From NCBI GenBank assembly GCA_016202845.1, contig JACQNW010000094.1, positions 1 to 26,167 of the forward strand: a stretch of DNA of 26,167 nt, given 5' to 3'. Of the stretch, positions 2,287-21,795 are shown piece by piece. This stretch comes from Candidatus Aenigmatarchaeota archaeon. GTDB lineage: Archaea; Aenigmatarchaeota; Aenigmatarchaeia; GW2011-AR5. Numbering within the stretch: position 1 is the first letter of the stretch; every line of letters begins with the position of its first letter. Below the pieces are notes generated by a model. It was not told the origin of the DNA. It did not search any database and saw nothing but the letters and a program-made list of their open reading frames with translations. Both the position numbers and the translations under genes were made by a program.

Positions 2287-3849
2287 CTAATCTCTTGCAT
2301 TGTGTTTTTCCAACAAAGCGATTATTTTTTCATAACCTCCGCGTCTTGCATCAGCAAGAGGCGTCCCTCCCCACCTGTCCTTTGGGTTGACATCTACATT
2401 TTTCGATATAAAAAATTCTACAACATTAATATGGCCTTCAGAAGCTGCAAGGTGTATTGGAGTTCTGTTGTCATAATCTCCTTCATTCAAATCTATCCCT
2501 GTGGAAGCCAGCCTTTGCACTTCAAAAAGGTCGCCGCGGCTCGCAGCTTCGACAAGCGCCATGATGCCTTTCATTCGTATTTCATTTTTGGTGAGCCTTG
2601 GATTAATTTTTTCAGGCGTCTTGATAAGGCTGTCATAATTGTGAAAATTAAATCTTTGAATAAATTTACGGCAAAAATCCAGCCCCCTTACAGAAATGCC
2701 ATGGTCATTTATTCGTGGAGACCAAATAGCAATGCCCATCACATTTGGAACAACTATCACAATAACCCCTGAAATTCCGCTTTTAGCCGGAAGCCCCACT
2801 GAAAAAGCAAATTCGCTTGAGTATTGTTCCATGCCGCATGAATACATAAGGGAAAGGCAGTTTTTCACAGTCTCTGGTTTGAGTACTTTTTCGCCGGTCT
2901 TTGGGCATATGCCTGCATTTGCAAGTGTTGATGCTATGACAGACAGTGCTTCTGTCGTAGTCTCTATGGAAAGGCAGGAAAAATAAAGATTAAGGATCTC
3001 GTTTATGTCTGTACCTTTTGCAAATAAACCATTTTGCCGCATAAAATATGCAAGCGTGTATTCTGCGTCAGAAACTCCTTTTTCAGATAAAATTGCGCCT
3101 TTATTAAGCCCGGGTCTTATTCCGCCTGCCATGGCTGCCCATGTATCCAATATAGCATTGAATTTTTTGGCAGGCTCAAGTTCAAGTTTGACTAGCGAAG
3201 AAACCATAAGCGCCCCGCTGGCGTCAAGAGGGTTGTGAGGCAATCCATCATTGTTCAGCATAAGATAATGAAAGCCTTTTTCTTTTGGCGCCCTGCCAAC
3301 ATGTTTGTGGGTTTCTTCTTCTCCAAGCTCATCAAGTGCAATGCAATAATTGATTGGCGTGCAGACAGATCTTGCTATTAGTGCAGCAGTGTAAGGCCCT
3401 ATGTTAAGGCGCTGGCCGTCAATCGTGCAGATGGAAACAGCATACTGCTCTGGGTCTGCTGACAACTCTGGTATATGGTCTGATACATTGCCGTCCGTAT
3501 TCAAAATTGTCCTGTTATATATGTTGGTGATGAAACTGTTAAAGTTGTTAAAGTCAGGAATAATAAGCTGGCCGGTCATGGCCTTTTCTATTAGTGTTAT
3601 GTTTTGGCCCACAGACTTTCTGAATGCTTCTGGCGATATTTTGCTGTCGCCTAATTTGTCAAGCGACTGGATTGTTTCTTTTATTCTTGCGTCATCCTCT
3701 AAGATTCCATGACGGGCAAGAGCCTGAAACAGGTCAGTTTTTTTTATCGCCCCGTTCGCTTCAATGTCCAACGCATCAAATAAATGGTCTATTGCATCAG
3801 GAATTTTTTGCTTTGTTTCTTTCTGGCTGGAAGCAATTTCATTTTCCAT
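2287..3849 (-). CDS. glsA: Glutaminase A homologue (EF-hand-like N-terminus, glutaminase domain, ankyrin repeats) with a degenerate active site
   Basis: GLPAKSGISG, MYSCGM, SICTIDGQ and C-terminal DYDNRTPIHLAASEG/KDRWGGTP motifs. Start placed at MENEI (3849) because of a GGTGGAG ribosome-binding site; the ORF track extends to 3957. Confidence 0.85.
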   Translation of the reverse strand: MENEIASSQKETKQKIPDAIDHLFDALDIEANGAIKKTDLFQALARHGILEDDARIKETIQSLDKLGDSKISPEAFRKSVGQNITLIEKAMTGQLIIPDFNNFNSFITNIYNRTILNTDGNVSDHIPELSADPEQYAVSICTIDGQRLNIGPYTAALIARSVCTPINYCIALDELGEEETHKHVGRAPKEKGFHYLMLNNDGLPHNPLDASGALMVSSLVKLELEPAKKFNAILDTWAAMAGGIRPGLNKGAILSEKGVSDAEYTLAYFMRQNGLFAKGTDINEILNLYFSCLSIETTTEALSVIASTLANAGICPKTGEKVLKPETVKNCLSLMYSCGMEQYSSEFAFSVGLPAKSGISGVIVIVVPNVMGIAIWSPRINDHGISVRGLDFCRKFIQRFNFHNYDSLIKTPEKINPRLTKNEIRMKGIMALVEAASRGDLFEVQRLASTGIDLNEGDYDNRTPIHLAASEGHINVVEFFISKNVDVNPKDRWGGTPLADARRGGYEKIIALLEKHNARD

Positions 3850-3967: not shown

Positions 3968-4978
3968 CTAGAATTTAGTTACAACAACAGGCTCGTCTTT
4001 TATTATGACTGTATGCTCGTGCTGCGATACCATGCCGTTTGAATCTTCCTTCAGTGGCGCATATTCGTGCAGGGCTCCTCTGTCTCTCAGTTCTTTCAGC
4101 GCCATCCTGACCTTGAACTGGCTTTCCATCCTAATCCATCTTTCAGCAAACGGCAGCCCCATCCACTCGACAGACATTTCTGTCAATTTTCGTGCTTCAG
4201 GCCCTCTTACAGTAGGCATACCATAAATTCTGTAAATCTGGATAGGCTGCGAGTCTCTTACATGGCCTTTTCCATCGGTCGCAAACGGCTCTATTGCTAT
4301 GATCATCCCTTCTTCTAATGTTTTCCCGGATTTATGTTTTATATTAGGAATTGTCGGCTCCATGTGGACGATATATTGGCCAACACCATGTCCGGTAAGA
4401 TTTTGTATTGGCTTGTAGCCGTATCCTGTTATCGTATCCTCTATGACAGCAGAAATATCGCTTATCAATGCGCCAGGCTTGCAAAGCTTTATCGCTTCTT
4501 CCAATGCTTTTTTTGAAGCTTCTGTAAGCTTGTCATAGTCAGGGTTAAAGCAGAAAGTCCGTGCAGCATCTGCAACACAGCCGTCAGAGTGCGCGCCTAT
4601 ATCAACTTTCAACACATCTTTTTCAGTAACGATGGTCTCGTCGTTGTAAGTTGGTGTGTAGTGAGCGGCTATCGTATTTAGTGAAAGATTTACAGGGAAA
4701 GCAACCTCCCCGCCCTTTCCCCTTATCATATTTTCTATCTTGTTTGCAATATCAAGCAGCTTTGCCCCGGGCTTCACAAATTCTTCCGTTTCTTTTAATA
4801 TTTCCCCTACAATCTTGCCGGCCTTGATAAAATCAGAATAATCATCATTTTCTATTTTATTATCTTTCAGTTCATCTTCTCTTTCTTCTTCTATATGAGC
4901 ATGCGAATGCTCATGCTTCCCTGCGTCAGCTATTTTTGGCGAAGTCCGCGTATAGTCTTTCTCGATTTTAATCACCAT
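3968..4978 (-). CDS. map: Type II methionine aminopeptidase
   Basis: AAHYTP, KVDIGAH, DAART, GHGV, AIEPF and QHEHT metal-binding motifs. Start at MVIKIE (4978) avoids overlap with the divergent gene. Confidence 0.93.
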   Translation of the reverse strand: MVIKIEKDYTRTSPKIADAGKHEHSHAHIEEEREDELKDNKIENDDYSDFIKAGKIVGEILKETEEFVKPGAKLLDIANKIENMIRGKGGEVAFPVNLSLNTIAAHYTPTYNDETIVTEKDVLKVDIGAHSDGCVADAARTFCFNPDYDKLTEASKKALEEAIKLCKPGALISDISAVIEDTITGYGYKPIQNLTGHGVGQYIVHMEPTIPNIKHKSGKTLEEGMIIAIEPFATDGKGHVRDSQPIQIYRIYGMPTVRGPEARKLTEMSVEWMGLPFAERWIRMESQFKVRMALKELRDRGALHEYAPLKEDSNGMVSQHEHTVIIKDEPVVVTKF

Positions 4979-5886: not shown

Positions 5887-5994
5887 TAGAGTTAAAGTCG
5901 ACGTATGACAATCCATCCTGGAAGGATAGTCAAAAGAGCTGTTAAGAAGGCATTGAATTCTAAAGTTTTAATAAATTGCTGATATAGAACTGGA

Positions 5995-7050
5995 ATGTAC
6001 TTTGATCCACATGTTCATTTAAGAGATAGAAACCAGAGATATAAAGAAACAATACTTCACGGACTTAGGGTTGCGAGAGACTCTGGTGTAGATGTTGTTA
6101 TAGACATGCCAAATACAGACCCGCCTGTGACTACGCGCAGTGAAGCAATAGCAAGAATTTATTTGGCACTTCTTCCAAGAGACACGCGGAACGTTTTCTA
6201 TTCATTATTTATGGGTCTTACAAAAGATCCTGAGCAGGTAAAACGAGCTATTGGTGTTTATCGAGAACTGTTTCCAAGAGTTGCCGGCATGAAGTTTTAT
6301 GCTGGTCATTCTGTCGGAAATTTAGGAGTGGTTGAATCAGAAGACCAAGCCAGGGTTTATGAAACACTAGCAAGAGAAGGATATGACGGAGTTTTTGTAA
6401 TACATGCAGAGAAAGAATCTCTGTTAAAACCCGATTTGTGGATGCCAGAAAATCCTGTAACTCATTGCAATGCAAGACCTGAAGAGGCAGAAGTCCAGTC
6501 AATAAAAGACCAACTGGAGCTTGCAGTTGAAACAGGATTCAGGGGAAAACTGCATATTTCTCACATATCTTCACCAGTATCTGTAGACATTGTCACTGAT
6601 GCCAAAAAAATTGGTGTTGACATATCTTGTGGTGTATGTCCTCACCATTTCATATACAATTCAGACCAAATGGAAAGGTCGGACGGAAATTTGTGGAAGA
6701 TGAACCCTCCCCTCCGTAGCAGAAAATCACAGGAAAAATTGCCTGAATATCTTCGTCAAGGGAAAATTGACTGGATAGAAACAGATCATGCGCCGCATAC
6801 GCTTGATGAAAAAACAGGCCCGCCATATGCTTCTGGCATACCAGGACTAGCTTGGTGGCCTTTGTTTGAAGAATATCTGCGTAGAAATGATTTTACAGAC
6901 AGGCAGATAGAAGAGCTTACATTCAATAATGCAGCCCGCCGCTTCAATCTGCCTGTAGAAAGGAAAAGACGAAAGCTTGTCGATCGAAGAAAAGATTACC
7001 CGTTCGATCCATATAAGGAAATTGCAGAACAGCTCGGCTGGGCTGCTTAA
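5995..7050 (+). CDS. pyrC: Dihydroorotase
   Basis: DPHVHLRD, IHAE, HISHIS, KMNPPLR and TDHAPH motifs. Adjacent to a DHODH gene. Confidence 0.9.
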   Translation: MYFDPHVHLRDRNQRYKETILHGLRVARDSGVDVVIDMPNTDPPVTTRSEAIARIYLALLPRDTRNVFYSLFMGLTKDPEQVKRAIGVYRELFPRVAGMKFYAGHSVGNLGVVESEDQARVYETLAREGYDGVFVIHAEKESLLKPDLWMPENPVTHCNARPEEAEVQSIKDQLELAVETGFRGKLHISHISSPVSVDIVTDAKKIGVDISCGVCPHHFIYNSDQMERSDGNLWKMNPPLRSRKSQEKLPEYLRQGKIDWIETDHAPHTLDEKTGPPYASGIPGLAWWPLFEEYLRRNDFTDRQIEELTFNNAARRFNLPVERKRRKLVDRRKDYPFDPYKEIAEQLGWAA

Positions 7051-8300
7051 TGTCTTCTTAGTCTTGCTTCTATTTCTCTTCTTGGTCTGCTCAGTCTCAG
7101 TTCTTGCAATGATTTGTATCCGTCTTTTTGCATCCTAGAAGAAACATCCGACATAAGTTCTTTTGCAAGGCCCAATCCATAAAACGTGTAAGGCGTGTAG
7201 CCTTCAACTGCATCTGCGCCTGCAAGAAAAGTTTTGTAAGCGTCATCCCCGTCAAATATTCCGCCGGTTGCAAATATTATTATGTCTTCTCCAAAGTAAG
7301 CTTCTCTCAAGTCCTTGATTGCTCTCATTCTGTATGGCGCAAGAAATCTTCCGCTCTTTCCTGCAGAGCCATAGCCCCATTCTGGTATAGGCTTATCTTC
7401 TCGTGAATACCACCAGTTGAGTGACCAGTGTGGCCAATCCCATGTTTCAGAAACAACTTGTTCTTTTGGAACCATAAATGTGTTTACTACAACAAACCCG
7501 TCGCCTTTCCCGCTGATCCATGGATCTGCCAAAAAAAGCCAGTTTTCTTTTTGGTCTTCTTCGTATGGCCCCATCTTGACAAGAAGAAGCTTATCTCCGC
7601 AAAGGGCTCGCATTAGATACGCTGTGTCATAAAATATTGACGGTGTTCTCAGTTTCTTGAGGGCATCTGTATTTGGAGAAAACGGGTTCCAGACAAATCC
7701 ATCAACATATGGGTTGAGTGTGTCAATTAGTATTCTAAGTTCGTCATTATGCGCAAAGAAATTGCTTTCTTGTGGCAAACCGCAAATGCTTACATAAATT
7801 GTGGCAGTTCCGCCGGATTCTCTGTAGCTTTTTATTTTTCTTGCAAAATATTCCAATCCTTTGCTGGGAAAGCCCTGGGCATTATACATATTCTCGTCGC
7901 CCGCATTAACTGCAACACGCGGCTGTTTGTTGCCTACCCTTACTGGAACAATTACTGTTCCAGATTCTTGGAATCCAAATACGTATGAAAATTCGTCCAA
8001 CACATCTCCGTTCTTGTCCATTCCAGCTGCAGTTCCGAAAGGAACAAATTTTTTCCCTTTAATCTCAACGTCAAGTTCAGGAAACTGTCTGGGAAGATCG
8101 TGTCTTTGCAAAATTTCTCTGAATTCAGGCAGTTGCCTCATTACAGCCTCATGAACTTTTTCAGGATCGTATCGAATGACGCCTTCGGCGTCTGTGGCTC
8201 TTCCATAACGTCTGTAAAGCTCAGGTCTGACAACATTTCTGAAAAATCTTGGAGATCGCAGCGACAAGTCAAATCCAGCCCTTTCAATAACAGAAGCCAT
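7047..8300 (-). CDS. pyrD: Dihydroorotate dehydrogenase (class 2-like)
   Basis: DPEKVH, AAGMDKNG, SGTV, NPFSPNT (catalytic Ser position), LVKMGP, VVNT, GKSG and TGGI...AGADAV. Start taken at MASVIE (8300). Confidence 0.88.
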   Translation of the reverse strand: MASVIERAGFDLSLRSPRFFRNVVRPELYRRYGRATDAEGVIRYDPEKVHEAVMRQLPEFREILQRHDLPRQFPELDVEIKGKKFVPFGTAAGMDKNGDVLDEFSYVFGFQESGTVIVPVRVGNKQPRVAVNAGDENMYNAQGFPSKGLEYFARKIKSYRESGGTATIYVSICGLPQESNFFAHNDELRILIDTLNPYVDGFVWNPFSPNTDALKKLRTPSIFYDTAYLMRALCGDKLLLVKMGPYEEDQKENWLFLADPWISGKGDGFVVVNTFMVPKEQVVSETWDWPHWSLNWWYSREDKPIPEWGYGSAGKSGRFLAPYRMRAIKDLREAYFGEDIIIFATGGIFDGDDAYKTFLAGADAVEGYTPYTFYGLGLAKELMSDVSSRMQKDGYKSLQELRLSRPRREIEARLRRH

Positions 8301-17885: not shown

Positions 17886-18305
17886 ATGATTTTAAATATG
17901 AATTTTAAGGCTACCGTTTTGTTCGTGATGCTGGTTTCAGCAGCTGCTTTCGCAGCAGAGCTGAACATGGGAAAAGTTGAAGTGATCAAAGGCGAGCTGG
18001 CGCAGATAAATATTGAAAATGCGCCTTATGGAGGCGCATATGGAACAATAAAGCTAAGGATTGGTTTTGCGGAATGGTACCCTGATGCAGTCTGGATGAT
18101 TCCGGAAAATTCAAACAAGGGTGATTTTTCTTATACAGGCACTGCTTATTCTGTCCCCTCTGCACTTAATCTGACGAACAACTGCCGCTCTTCAATATAT
18201 TATAATTCAACACTGGGCTATGCTTTCAAATCGTCTGTAAAAGAAAACGGAACTTTCTGTATTCTTGCAGATCCGGGGGATTACAAATTTATTGCAGAAT
18301 ATTGA
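17886..18305 (+). CDS. Hypothetical secreted protein
   Basis: Signal-peptide-like N-terminus (FKATVLFVMLVSAAAFA); no recognisable family. Confidence 0.55.
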   Translation: MILNMNFKATVLFVMLVSAAAFAAELNMGKVEVIKGELAQINIENAPYGGAYGTIKLRIGFAEWYPDAVWMIPENSNKGDFSYTGTAYSVPSALNLTNNCRSSIYYNSTLGYAFKSSVKENGTFCILADPGDYKFIAEY

Positions 18306-18343
18306 GCGCTTTGATTAACCAATTTTTCAAAGTCCTCTATTAG

Positions 18344-20251: not shown

Positions 20252-21121
20252 ATGCTTTCAGCGCTTTCGTCGCAGGAATCTGCAGTTTACGGCGCATTCT
20301 TGTCGTCTGCAGATCTTGTTGTTCTTGGATCGCAAGAGAAAGTAAATGGTTTTGCAAACTCTCTTTCACTAAAAACATTGATTGACTATGACCCTGAAGC
20401 AGCAGCTTCTGCCGCAGCTTTCTCGTCCAAGCGCGTCTTTACTGCGTCTCCAATATATTCTGAAACATCGCCCCTTGTTTACGCGGGCAAAATAGCCCCT
20501 TCCAATGCCATCGTTTTTATAGCAGAGTCAAATCAGGAAATAATGGATTCAATAGTGCTCGCATACAGGGTGGCAGAAGATCCCAAAGTTAGCGCTCCTG
20601 CTGCAGTTCTTTACGAATATCCTGGCTTCATAGAGTCTGTGAGATTGCCAAATATTGCAGCAGTCAAGAATTTTCTGCAAAAACCAAAGCCTGGAAAACC
20701 AAACATAGAAGCAGCAATCCATGTTATAGAAAAAACAGAGGACCTTTGGAAGAAAAAGTTTCACCGTTCTTTCGGTTTATTCGAATGTTATAAAACAGAG
20801 GACGCCAAGGAGATCCTTGTCATGTCCGGTTTTCATTTCCCTACATGCAAGACTGCAGTTGACAGGCTTAGGGTAGGCGGGAGAAAAGCAGGCGCTGTAA
20901 GGGTAAGGACAGTAAACCCCTTCCATTCTGAAGGGATTTCAAAAATCCTTTCTTCCGCAGAGAAAATATCTGTGCTTGACAGCGCAACTTTTGGCGCTTT
21001 GCTGGCAGACAAAACGCCCTCTGTTAAATCAAGATTCACCTATACCAAGTACCTCTCAGTTGATGATTTTATCAATATTTTTGCAAACATCGGCAAAGAG
21101 GGGAATTTTCAGATAAAATAA
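20252..21121 (+). CDS. Degenerate, shortened oxidoreductase alpha subunit
   Basis: SKRVFTAS, AYRVAED, FGLFECYKTEDAKEILV and RVRTVNPF. Lacks YPITP. Confidence 0.72.
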   Translation: MLSALSSQESAVYGAFLSSADLVVLGSQEKVNGFANSLSLKTLIDYDPEAAASAAAFSSKRVFTASPIYSETSPLVYAGKIAPSNAIVFIAESNQEIMDSIVLAYRVAEDPKVSAPAAVLYEYPGFIESVRLPNIAAVKNFLQKPKPGKPNIEAAIHVIEKTEDLWKKKFHRSFGLFECYKTEDAKEILVMSGFHFPTCKTAVDRLRVGGRKAGAVRVRTVNPFHSEGISKILSSAEKISVLDSATFGALLADKTPSVKSRFTYTKYLSVDDFINIFANIGKEGNFQIK

Positions 21122-21214
21122 TATTTCCAATAGAGGACTTTGAAAAATTGGTTAATCAAAGTGCCCAATAGAATTGTCAAAGAATTTGAAACTGAAATTT
21201 CCTTCGGTTAAGAA

Positions 21215-21316
21215 ATGGCTCAGAAGCTACCCAATCGTCTACATCAGGAGCAGGTACCGACGCCAAAGGCGTCAATGCATGTCCTTTCAGACTGGGGTCG
21301 GTTTCGTCATCGCCAC
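21215..21316 (-). ncRNA. Box C/D guide sRNA
   Basis: Minus strand: GUGGC stem, 3-nt bulge, C box AUGACGA (21310..21304), guide, D' CUGA (21290..21287), hairpin insert, C' UGAUGU (21246..21241), guide, D CUGA (21223..21220), GCCAU closing the stem. Both guides are complementary to conserved 23S rRNA motifs. Confidence 0.8.
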
Positions 21317-21318
21317 TA

Positions 21319-21795
21319 ATGATTGACAATGAAACAGTTTTAAGCTTGCCATATTTCCATGGAACAAGTGAACTAATGACAATGAGAAAAGGCCGTGAGG
21401 TCTATCCAGAAAAGTATGAGCAGGCCGTAAAGCTGCACGCATCCGGAATGCCAGTAAAAGACATTGCACAAAAACTGTCAATCTCATATTCCTGCGCTTA
21501 CCATTGGGTGAAGGGATTGAGAAAGCCAGAAGAGGGCAATGTTTCAGAATTTATGTCTTTATTGAAAACCAACGGTCCATTGCCTATCGTTGACGTAAAG
21601 GAAAAATTCCCCAAGCACAACGAACTTTTCCTGATATCATCCCGCCGCGGCCTCCCTATAATGCGCAAGACATTGGACAGAAAGTTGAATGATTATAACA
21701 CCTGGTATTTTCTTTCAGGCCAGGAACAGGAGCTTGATAAACGTATAAATCAATTGTACGATAAAATAAAGAGTGTAAAAGAGTTGTTAAAATAA
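21319..21795 (+). CDS. Helix-turn-helix protein inside the oxidoreductase operon
   Basis: YEQAVKLHASGMPVKDIAQKLSISYSCAYHWVKG is HTH-like. The true start is probably at 21376 or 21382. Confidence 0.65.
   Translation: MIDNETVLSLPYFHGTSELMTMRKGREVYPEKYEQAVKLHASGMPVKDIAQKLSISYSCAYHWVKGLRKPEEGNVSEFMSLLKTNGPLPIVDVKEKFPKHNELFLISSRRGLPIMRKTLDRKLNDYNTWYFLSGQEQELDKRINQLYDKIKSVKELLK

Follow-up and report, generated by a model that had tools for sequence, protein, structure and literature searches.

A predicted dual-guide box C/D sRNA in an Aenigmatarchaeota genome, complementary to the G2251 and U2438 regions of 23S rRNA and carrying a palindromic repeat

The closest described relatives of the RNA reported here are archaeal C/D sRNAs that have been predicted in three species to target the P-loop of 23S rRNA, where position G2520 of the alignment corresponds to E. 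coli G2251 (Dennis et al. 2015, PMC4644070). These sRNAs are of the same kind, with C, D', C' and D boxes and a terminal stem, and have the L7Ae/Nop5/fibrillarin machinery and the target nucleotide that are predicted for the RNA described here. They come, however, from thermophilic Crenarchaeota and Euryarchaeota and have the usual length of 50-70 nt, whereas the RNA described below belongs to the Aenigmatarchaeota (DPANN) and measures 102 nt with a repeat insert; the two are likened here by type and by the G2251 target.

In eukaryotes, yeast snR67 is reported to guide Gm2619, equal to E. coli Gm2251 (PMC11121408); it also guides Um2724. The Rfam consensus of SNORD31 (..UACCG.CCCCAGU-CUGA) shows the same guide sequence and the same register as our candidate (AACCGACCCCAGU-CUGA), with a guide-driven match of 16 bits against a gathering score of 40. 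We take yeast snR67 to be the counterpart of human SNORD31 (U31) and, by our count, its Um2724 not to be equivalent to U2438. Both are eukaryotic snoRNPs with Nop56/Nop58, and the second target of snR67 differs from that of our candidate; the likeness may reflect either convergence on the same target or common descent. The same P-loop nucleotide is also modified by protein-only Gm2251 methyltransferases, the stand-alone SpoU-type enzymes RlmB of E. coli and Pet56/Mrm1 of yeast mitochondria, which, unlike the system proposed here, work free of any guide RNA.

Anatomy and setting of the RNA at 21215-21316

We analysed a stretch of 26,167 nt (the window) from an assembly of 0.95 Mb in 137 contigs, with 40% G+C and an estimated completeness of 77%. 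The candidate lies in a 197-nt gap between a gene resembling the alpha subunit of PFOR (20252-21121) and an ORF with an HTH domain (21319-21795). Read on the minus strand from 21316 to 21215, its sequence is GUGGC-G-AUGACGA-AACCGACCCCAGU-CUGA-39 nt-CUGAUGU-AGACGAUUGGGUAGCUU-CUGA-GCCAU, with the following features:

21215..21316, minus strand: whole predicted box C/D sRNA, 102 nt, full-length match of covariance model R1 (see below)
21312..21316, minus strand: terminal stem, 5' half GUGGC, pairing with GCCAU at 21215-21219
21304..21310, minus strand: box C, AUGACGA, aligning with AUGAAGA/AUGAUGA/AUGACGA of homologues
21291..21303, minus strand: D' guide AACCGACCCCAGU, 13 nt, predicted to be aimed at the LSU P-loop with position 5 facing G2251
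21287..21290, minus strand: box D', CUGA, aligning with NNGA of homologues (UUGA, AUGA, GGGA and others)
21253..21280, minus strand: copy of a palindromic repeat, core GACGCCUUUGGCGUC at 21259-21273, from pattern counts and consensus
21241..21247, minus strand: C'-like box CUGAUGU, from sequence; the model alignment sets the AUGAnnn boxes of homologues over this stretch
21235-21241, minus strand: alternative C' box UAGACGA, from sequence
21224..21240, minus strand: D guide AGACGAUUGGGUAGCUU, with core GGGUAGCUU at 21224-21232 predicted to be aimed at LSU AAGCUACCC, position 5 facing U2438
21220..21223, minus strand: box D, CUGA, aligning with CUGA/UUGA/CCGA/CGGA/CAGA of homologues
21215..21219, minus strand: terminal stem, 3' half GCCAU, pairing with GUGGC at 21312-21316
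21338..21343, minus strand: TATA-like hexamer TTAAAA, 22-27 nt upstream of the 5' end of the sRNA, at the position of the homologues' hexamer

The initial annotation, made from the sequence alone, had read here four boxes in order on the minus strand, closed by a 5-bp stem with K-turn geometry and preceded by TTAAAA at about 25 nt. Most of this holds. The stem can be read directly (four Watson-Crick pairs and one G.U) and covaries in homologues, and TTAAAA (21343-21338) falls in the same alignment column as the TATA-like hexamers of homologues, from which we infer that it is the promoter. Box C departs from RUGAUGA by one mismatch (U5 to C) and keeps the G3-A4 and G6-A7 dinucleotides that a K-turn requires, and box D is CUGA, in agreement with the proposed geometry. 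Box D' is a perfect CUGA, and the spacer that precedes it has 13 nt rather than 12. Boxes C, D' and D are thus as placed, but C' is ambiguous between CUGAUGU and UAGACGA: the spacing to D is 17 nt for the former and 11 nt for the latter, the usual value being 12 nt, and reading of the sequence found no UGA-type C' box at 12-nt spacing in the sRNA.

The HTH protein has database matches at 53-71% identity. Its homologues align only from residues 10-21 of the 158-aa ORF, and most from 16-21; translation therefore probably begins at one of two ATGs, at 21376 or at 21382, which would leave a non-coding gap closer to 250 nt. An extension of the HTH ORF upstream through the palindrome was considered and rejected: the frame is open but offers no ATG, GTG or TTG, and homologues align from residues 10-21. 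The candidate had also been called a hidden antisense RNA. It does lie on the minus strand between the alpha-subunit and HTH genes, but it is intergenic and antisense to no gene, the arrangement being simply inverted. In most relatives the sRNA stands upstream of the HTH gene on the same strand, in several at 33-40 nt, in most others at a few hundred nt and in G034 at 1.5 kb; it is inverted in the window and in G029, G035 and G030, and it is found away from the HTH gene in G012 (on another contig) and G028 (1.9 kb off). In the window, a single quasi-symmetric TTTTAA/TTAAAA could serve both divergent units.

The sRNA region is identical, with no substitution or indel, in contigs of four groundwater metagenome runs from one study, and because the same sequence is found in all four, neither the insert of this copy nor the additional C of its D' guide is likely to be an artefact of one assembly.

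Conservation of the RNA across the order

Homologues were reached through a DNA search: in other families, short segments close upstream of the orthologous HTH gene matched the 3' part of the candidate perfectly. Read next to that gene, they are compact canonical C/D sRNAs of 59-75 nt. Six compact relatives were aligned, excluding the window sequence, to build a covariance model (R1) whose sole structure is the terminal stem. R1 matches the window at exactly 21215-21316(-), over model positions 1-68, with 33 bits and an E-value of 1.8e-6 in a search of the genome or 2.6e-7 in a search of the locus; it is the only R1 match in that genome. An Infernal-type search with a model blind to the window thus recovers, in full length, the RNA that the initial annotation had delimited. 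Among 70 genomes of the order, 45 contain a match, single copy in each, plus a weak second match in G004. None was found with R1 in G001, a member of the same genus, whose contig stops 100 nt upstream of the HTH gene.

Conservation in relatives of boxes and guides, on which the initial annotation had made its reading depend, is what the alignment displays. Across 35 aligned copies, box C is (A/G)UGAnGA in most (variants include AUGAUAA and AUGAGAA), the D' box is NNGA in all but one, and the D box is CUGA, UUGA, CCGA, CGGA or CAGA. The D-guide core GGUAGCU (guide positions 2-8) is identical in 34/35 homologues while position 1 and positions from 9 onwards vary, and the D'-guide core GUCCCAG and its variants are conserved as well. 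Variation is free at guide position 1, among the outer nucleotides of the guides and in the D'-C' linker, whose length ranges from about 6 to 50 nt. In 33 distinct homologues the terminal stem is paired in 88.5% of cells, against 25-50% when the partner strand is slid, and all five pairs are changed on both sides, a covariation score that none of 500 shuffles reaches. A TATA-like hexamer stands 22-28 nt upstream of the 5' end in 30/30 free-standing copies, and a T-rich run follows many copies. This family conservation, the covariation of the stem and the fixed position of the TATA-like hexamer show the locus to be a real RNA gene, probably one with transcription of its own. Adding the complementarities described below, we consider it very probable that it encodes a box C/D sRNA with dual guides to G2251 and U2438; as such it is an ordinary, previously unannotated member of a known archaeal class.

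Several other searches and readings were tried. A scan of the window against Rfam gave no family at gathering score; snoPyro_CD (RF00095) matched with 18.6 bits against a threshold of 45, and since this score and that of SNORD31 (RF00089) fall below their thresholds the sRNA is assigned to neither family. RF00095 was useless as a whole-genome detector, with nothing above the gathering score and E <= 1 in 11/14 control genomes that included E. coli and B. subtilis. An exact search for TGANGA-N6-12-CCCCAGTCTGA retrieved no relative among 61 genomes, a result that first resembled non-conservation; in the relatives, however, the guide reads GUCCCAG, which forms a G.U wobble with G2253, and the D' boxes depart from the consensus. 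Finally, two overlapping ORFs of 50 aa were rejected as coding sequence, the linker indels of homologues not being multiples of three and conservation being confined to boxes and guides.

Complementarity to the large-subunit rRNA

The bin holds no LSU rRNA, so both guides were tested on LSU genes of relatives, obtained from 15 of them; the P-loop could be placed in 13. It reads (A/G)CUGGGGCGGUA in 12/13 sequences, with one substitution in the remaining one. The D' guide of the window pairs with ACUGGGGCGGU of the relatives' LSU through 7 bp, a bulged A and 4 bp, which is the 7+4 bp duplex put forward in the initial annotation. The D' guides of homologues (..CYGUCCCAGN, for example AACCGUCCCAGU) form 8-11 bp with the P-loop from guide position 2, including 1-2 G.U, and show a U.G wobble at G2253. 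When the whole LSU locus was searched, the P-loop was the top-ranked anchored site for the D' guide in 8/10 same-genome sRNA/LSU pairs. Counted upstream from D', guide nucleotide 5 lies opposite the second residue of the GGGG run, as the initial annotation had predicted from the D+5 rule. By our count in E. coli numbering, we take this G to be G2251 and the nucleotide selected by the D guide to be U2438. For G2251 the count agrees with PMC4644070 and PMC11121408. The window guide resembles that of genus g15 (GACCGACCCAGU) plus one C, which replaces an A-G mismatch of the g15 guides at G2253 with a C-G pair and a bulge.

The second guide had been assigned 9 bp and the equivalent of U2438. Its core GGGUAGCUU indeed forms 9 bp with AAGCUACCC in the window when position 1 is counted, and this complement is located directly 5' of (C/U)GGGGAUAA in the relatives' LSU (exact in 7/13, one mismatch in the others tabulated). 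The duplex is short: in 10/10 same-genome pairs the U2438 site offers 7-8 Watson-Crick pairs from D-guide position 2 with no G.U, and the sites that outrank it owe their rank to 2-5 G.U pairs. The strongest argument for U2438 as the predicted target is the invariance, across the family, of exactly guide positions 2-8. An 11-nt complementarity of the D guide to CUACCCAAUCG, about 60 nt upstream of the P-loop in the LSU of G010, was discarded as a target because that sequence varies among relatives, is unmatched by the sRNA of G010 itself and would be read in a register that mismatches guide positions 2-3. A search for alternative targets in the organism's own genome and in its own SSU rRNA gave only chance matches of 10-11 nt.

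Immediately 3' of the U2438 site, LSU loci L029, L030, L033 and others of the relatives have GGGGAUAAUGGUGUCGUAGCGGG as the central loop of domain V. The same loop is GGGGAUAAC(A/U)GGCU in E. coli and Haloarcula, which would imply that in these relatives C2452 and adjacent positions of the peptidyl transferase centre are either occupied by an unusual base or deleted.

In five relatives the sRNA is situated inside an insertion of the LSU rRNA gene, and these copies are devoid of a TATA box:

L033 (G010), 4512-4588: LSU-hosted sRNA copy
L032 (G009), 4139-4230: LSU-hosted sRNA copy
L048 (G014), 3452-3521: LSU-hosted sRNA copy
L047 (G004), 5958-6040: LSU-hosted sRNA copy
L051 (G033), 641-744: LSU-hosted sRNA copy

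In four of them (G010, G009, G014 and G004) the insertion site comes right after GAGAGUU, at about E. coli 2474/2475, and lies some 36 nt to the 3' side of the U2438 nucleotide that the sRNA itself would target; G011 has an insertion at the GAGAGUU site that contains no sRNA. These insertions are probably introns that host a guide for their own host rRNA. Archaeal C/D guides hosted by introns are known from the pre-tRNA-Trp intron of Haloferax and Pyrococcus. The five relatives likewise have a promoterless sRNA within an insertion, here of the LSU gene that it would target; their host is an rRNA instead of a tRNA and the introns are putative, while the window copy is free-standing with a TATA-like element of its own. 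A literature search on C/D sRNAs in archaeal rRNA introns found nothing relevant.

The insert, the methylation machinery and competing explanations

The core of the D'-C' linker, GACGCCUUUGGCGUC at 21259-21273, is a copy of a dispersed palindrome, GACGCC-N3-GGCGTC, whose wider consensus (aaGTG.aTT-GACGCC-TTT-GGCGTC-GGTTC.tcttt) spans about 30-35 nt. Exact copies number 27 in the window genome (46 with two mismatches), 35 in G001 of the same genus and 14 in G042, against <=7 in other genomes of the family and 0 in four other families; a control with the reversed pattern gave 0-1 per genome. Together with its flanks, the repeat folds into an extended hairpin that closes the linker (-17.3 kcal/mol, z -3.2), and its stem is predicted to extend into the C' box CUGAUGU. 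The initial annotation had noticed a structured insert of about 40 nt and attributed to it an unusual length of the RNA. The insert is real and folded, but it is a repeat copy and not intrinsic to the sRNA. A long linker is not unique to the window, since that of G011 has about 48 nt and the sRNAs of G049, G062, G061 and G047 reach totals of 93-101 nt; many homologues have a small hairpin in this linker.

The same palindrome core appears in the same loop in G047 (L094, 1540-1554), and because it is absent from its congeners G015 and G041 this points to an independent gain. In a third genus (G042; L087, 1639-1653) a copy lies 73 nt upstream of the sRNA. By a rough estimate, from 4-46 copies per genome, the chance of each such placement is of the order of 1e-4 to 1e-3. 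Since recurrence at the sRNA/HTH locus in three genera would be rare by chance, it suggests either a link with the locus, possibly as an operator of the HTH protein, or an insertion preference.

Examples of other copies of the palindrome are found at 8178-8192 of the window and in G000:C13:9019-10071, G000:C118:6176-6760 and G000:C72:5249-5749. In the genus they are mostly within ORFs, in one preferred orientation and frame encoding (R/G)T-DAKGV-N(T/P)L, and are enriched in the first 60 codons. One forms an insertion of about 6 residues, by comparison with four relatives, in a protein resembling cytidylate/adenylate kinase (identity read from the N-terminal sequence); another is part of a genus-specific N-terminal extension of a putative small subunit of replication factor C (WTEKYRP motif), where G001 has two tandem copies. 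The stem of the palindrome shows compensatory variants. An analogy for the insert only is offered by the palindromic elements of Rickettsia, which are likewise short palindromic repeats expanded in one lineage and located both within protein genes, in frame, and in non-coding DNA; those are roughly 100-150 nt long, against a 15-nt core and about 30-35 nt overall for the archaeal repeat. We tentatively entertain, as a possibility that we rate as rather doubtful, that the insert is not inert, being either a new kind of very small archaeal palindromic element or a protein recognition site (for instance of the adjacent HTH regulator) recruited into a guide RNA, and that, alongside, the LSU-hosted guide of sister genera, some 36 nt away from the site it would target, corresponds in archaea to the intron-hosted snoRNAs that act on their host transcript.

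Of the genes for the methylation machinery, L7Ae is present in the genome (96 bits), so that this part of what the initial annotation expected is found; fibrillarin and Nop5 were found neither in the bin nor in G001, the only other genome of the genus, both 77% complete. Nop5 and fibrillarin are present in 37/41 and 22/26 searched genomes, respectively, that of the window being among those searched. We read their absence as incompleteness of the bins, because the two genes are adjacent in relatives, where one missing contig would remove both at once, and because G005 (81% complete) lacks both and yet has a canonical sRNA copy (E 1e-15), its congener G021 having fibrillarin. The two missing genes are the main weakness of our reading and underlie its leading alternative, which is that the window copy is a decaying relic, either because the genus has lost C/D methylation or because the copy was crippled by the repeat insertion.

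We judge this alternative improbable, although several observations speak in its favour besides the two genes missing from both bins. Among the 35 aligned copies, that of the window has the fourth-lowest R1 score, 33 bits, where all the other free-standing ones reach 41-78 and only three LSU-hosted ones fall below it; its D' duplex is interrupted, it has no C' box at canonical spacing and it contains about 30 nt of foreign sequence. Yet boxes C, D' and D are intact, as are the terminal stem, the position of the TATA-like hexamer and the core of the D guide, the D' box is nearer to consensus than those of relatives, and the extra C adds a C-G pair relative to the g15 guides. Other homologues of 90-107 nt keep conserved guides. 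As to the genes, the probability that a single operon of two genes escapes both 77%-complete bins is about 0.05, and in G005 the same absence is produced by incompleteness.

A second alternative is that the conserved element is a control region of the downstream HTH gene, acting at the DNA or mRNA level, in which the palindrome would serve as operator or leader hairpin and the likeness to C/D motifs would be incidental. The tight linkage of the element to the HTH gene across the order and the recurrence of the palindrome at the locus in three genera would fit, and a dimeric HTH protein would bind a dyad-symmetric site. What is conserved, however, is boxes and guides at fixed mutual distances and not the dyad, most homologues have no palindrome, and the element also occurs away from the HTH gene, on another contig or 1.9 kb off and in five LSU genes. 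Moreover, a regulatory palindrome would add to a guide RNA without replacing it, and we hold this explanation to be very improbable. Chance co-occurrence of short box-like motifs in intergenic DNA, for which one could invoke the shortness of the boxes, one of them with a mismatch, and the silence of Rfam at gathering score, is effectively refuted by the R1 matches (an independent model, E ~1e-6 at the exact coordinates), the 45 single-copy homologues with conserved guides and the covariation.

The guide RNA reading is therefore retained. From the observed sequence anatomy, family conservation, stem covariation, fixed TATA position and complementarity to the rRNA of relatives, we propose the following working for it, in which transcription, RNP assembly and the methylations are deduced from sequence; the public runs that hold the sRNA are all DNA (groundwater metagenomes). 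A dual-guide box C/D sRNA would be transcribed from its own TATA-type promoter (TTAAAA, about 25 nt upstream). Box C (AUGACGA), joined to box D (CUGA) by the terminal stem, would form with it a K-turn that L7Ae binds, the platform for assembly of Nop5 and fibrillarin. The D' guide, bound to the 23S P-loop, would set G2251 opposite the fifth nucleotide upstream of D', and the D guide, bound to AAGCUACCC, would set U2438 opposite the fifth nucleotide upstream of D, both riboses being 2'-O-methylated during ribosome assembly. The two sites are separated by about 190 nt of domain V, so a role of the RNA in folding this region is also possible. With respect to its relatives of 59-75 nt, the window copy would have undergone three changes: the gain of a genus-specific palindrome in the D'-C' linker, which is tolerant of such changes, an additional C in the D' guide, and inversion relative to the HTH gene.

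According to this proposal, very small DPANN genomes would keep a dedicated guide RNA for two nucleotides that both stand beside the catalytic centre of the ribosome. A strict four-box scan of the genome, independent of R1, gave no candidate and missed even the window copy, because of its odd C' spacing. Relaxed motif scans of the whole bin, one of them demanding a TATA box, boxes C and D, a D' box of the form NNGA and a terminal stem of 4 bp or more, gave no second convincing C/D sRNA, nor any other candidate with a guide fitting a site conserved across the relatives' LSU; a complementarity statistic used in one of them did not separate real from reversed rRNA and was dropped. C/D guides may be very few in this lineage, or the boxes of the others may be degenerate. 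As the scans found no other convincing guide, this sRNA may be one of very few retained and thus a pointer to the least dispensable modifications. It also adds one more unannotated RNA gene in genomes in which RNA genes are routinely missed. The guide RNA itself being ordinary, the parts that deserve further attention are the repeat insertion, by which the D'-C' linker of an archaeal guide RNA appears to tolerate 30 nt, and the LSU-hosted relatives, which suggest that rRNA insertions can host a guide targeting the flanking exon.

Two further observations concern the genome. The SSU rRNA gene of the bin (G000:C135:111-2550) spans 2440 nt for a model of 1478 positions and scores only 384 bits, and for this reason it probably contains large insertions, a feature shared by many of the relatives' LSU genes, which reach up to 6.7 kb. 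A second short repeat is present at 21129-21170 of the window, close behind the alpha-like gene and some 45 nt away from the sRNA on its 3' side; it recurs at 18300-18341 of the window (95% identical) and at G000:C72:4077-4120, with many copies in G026 and G034, and it breaks the unitigs of all four runs, with 3-5x local depth in runs X1 and X3.
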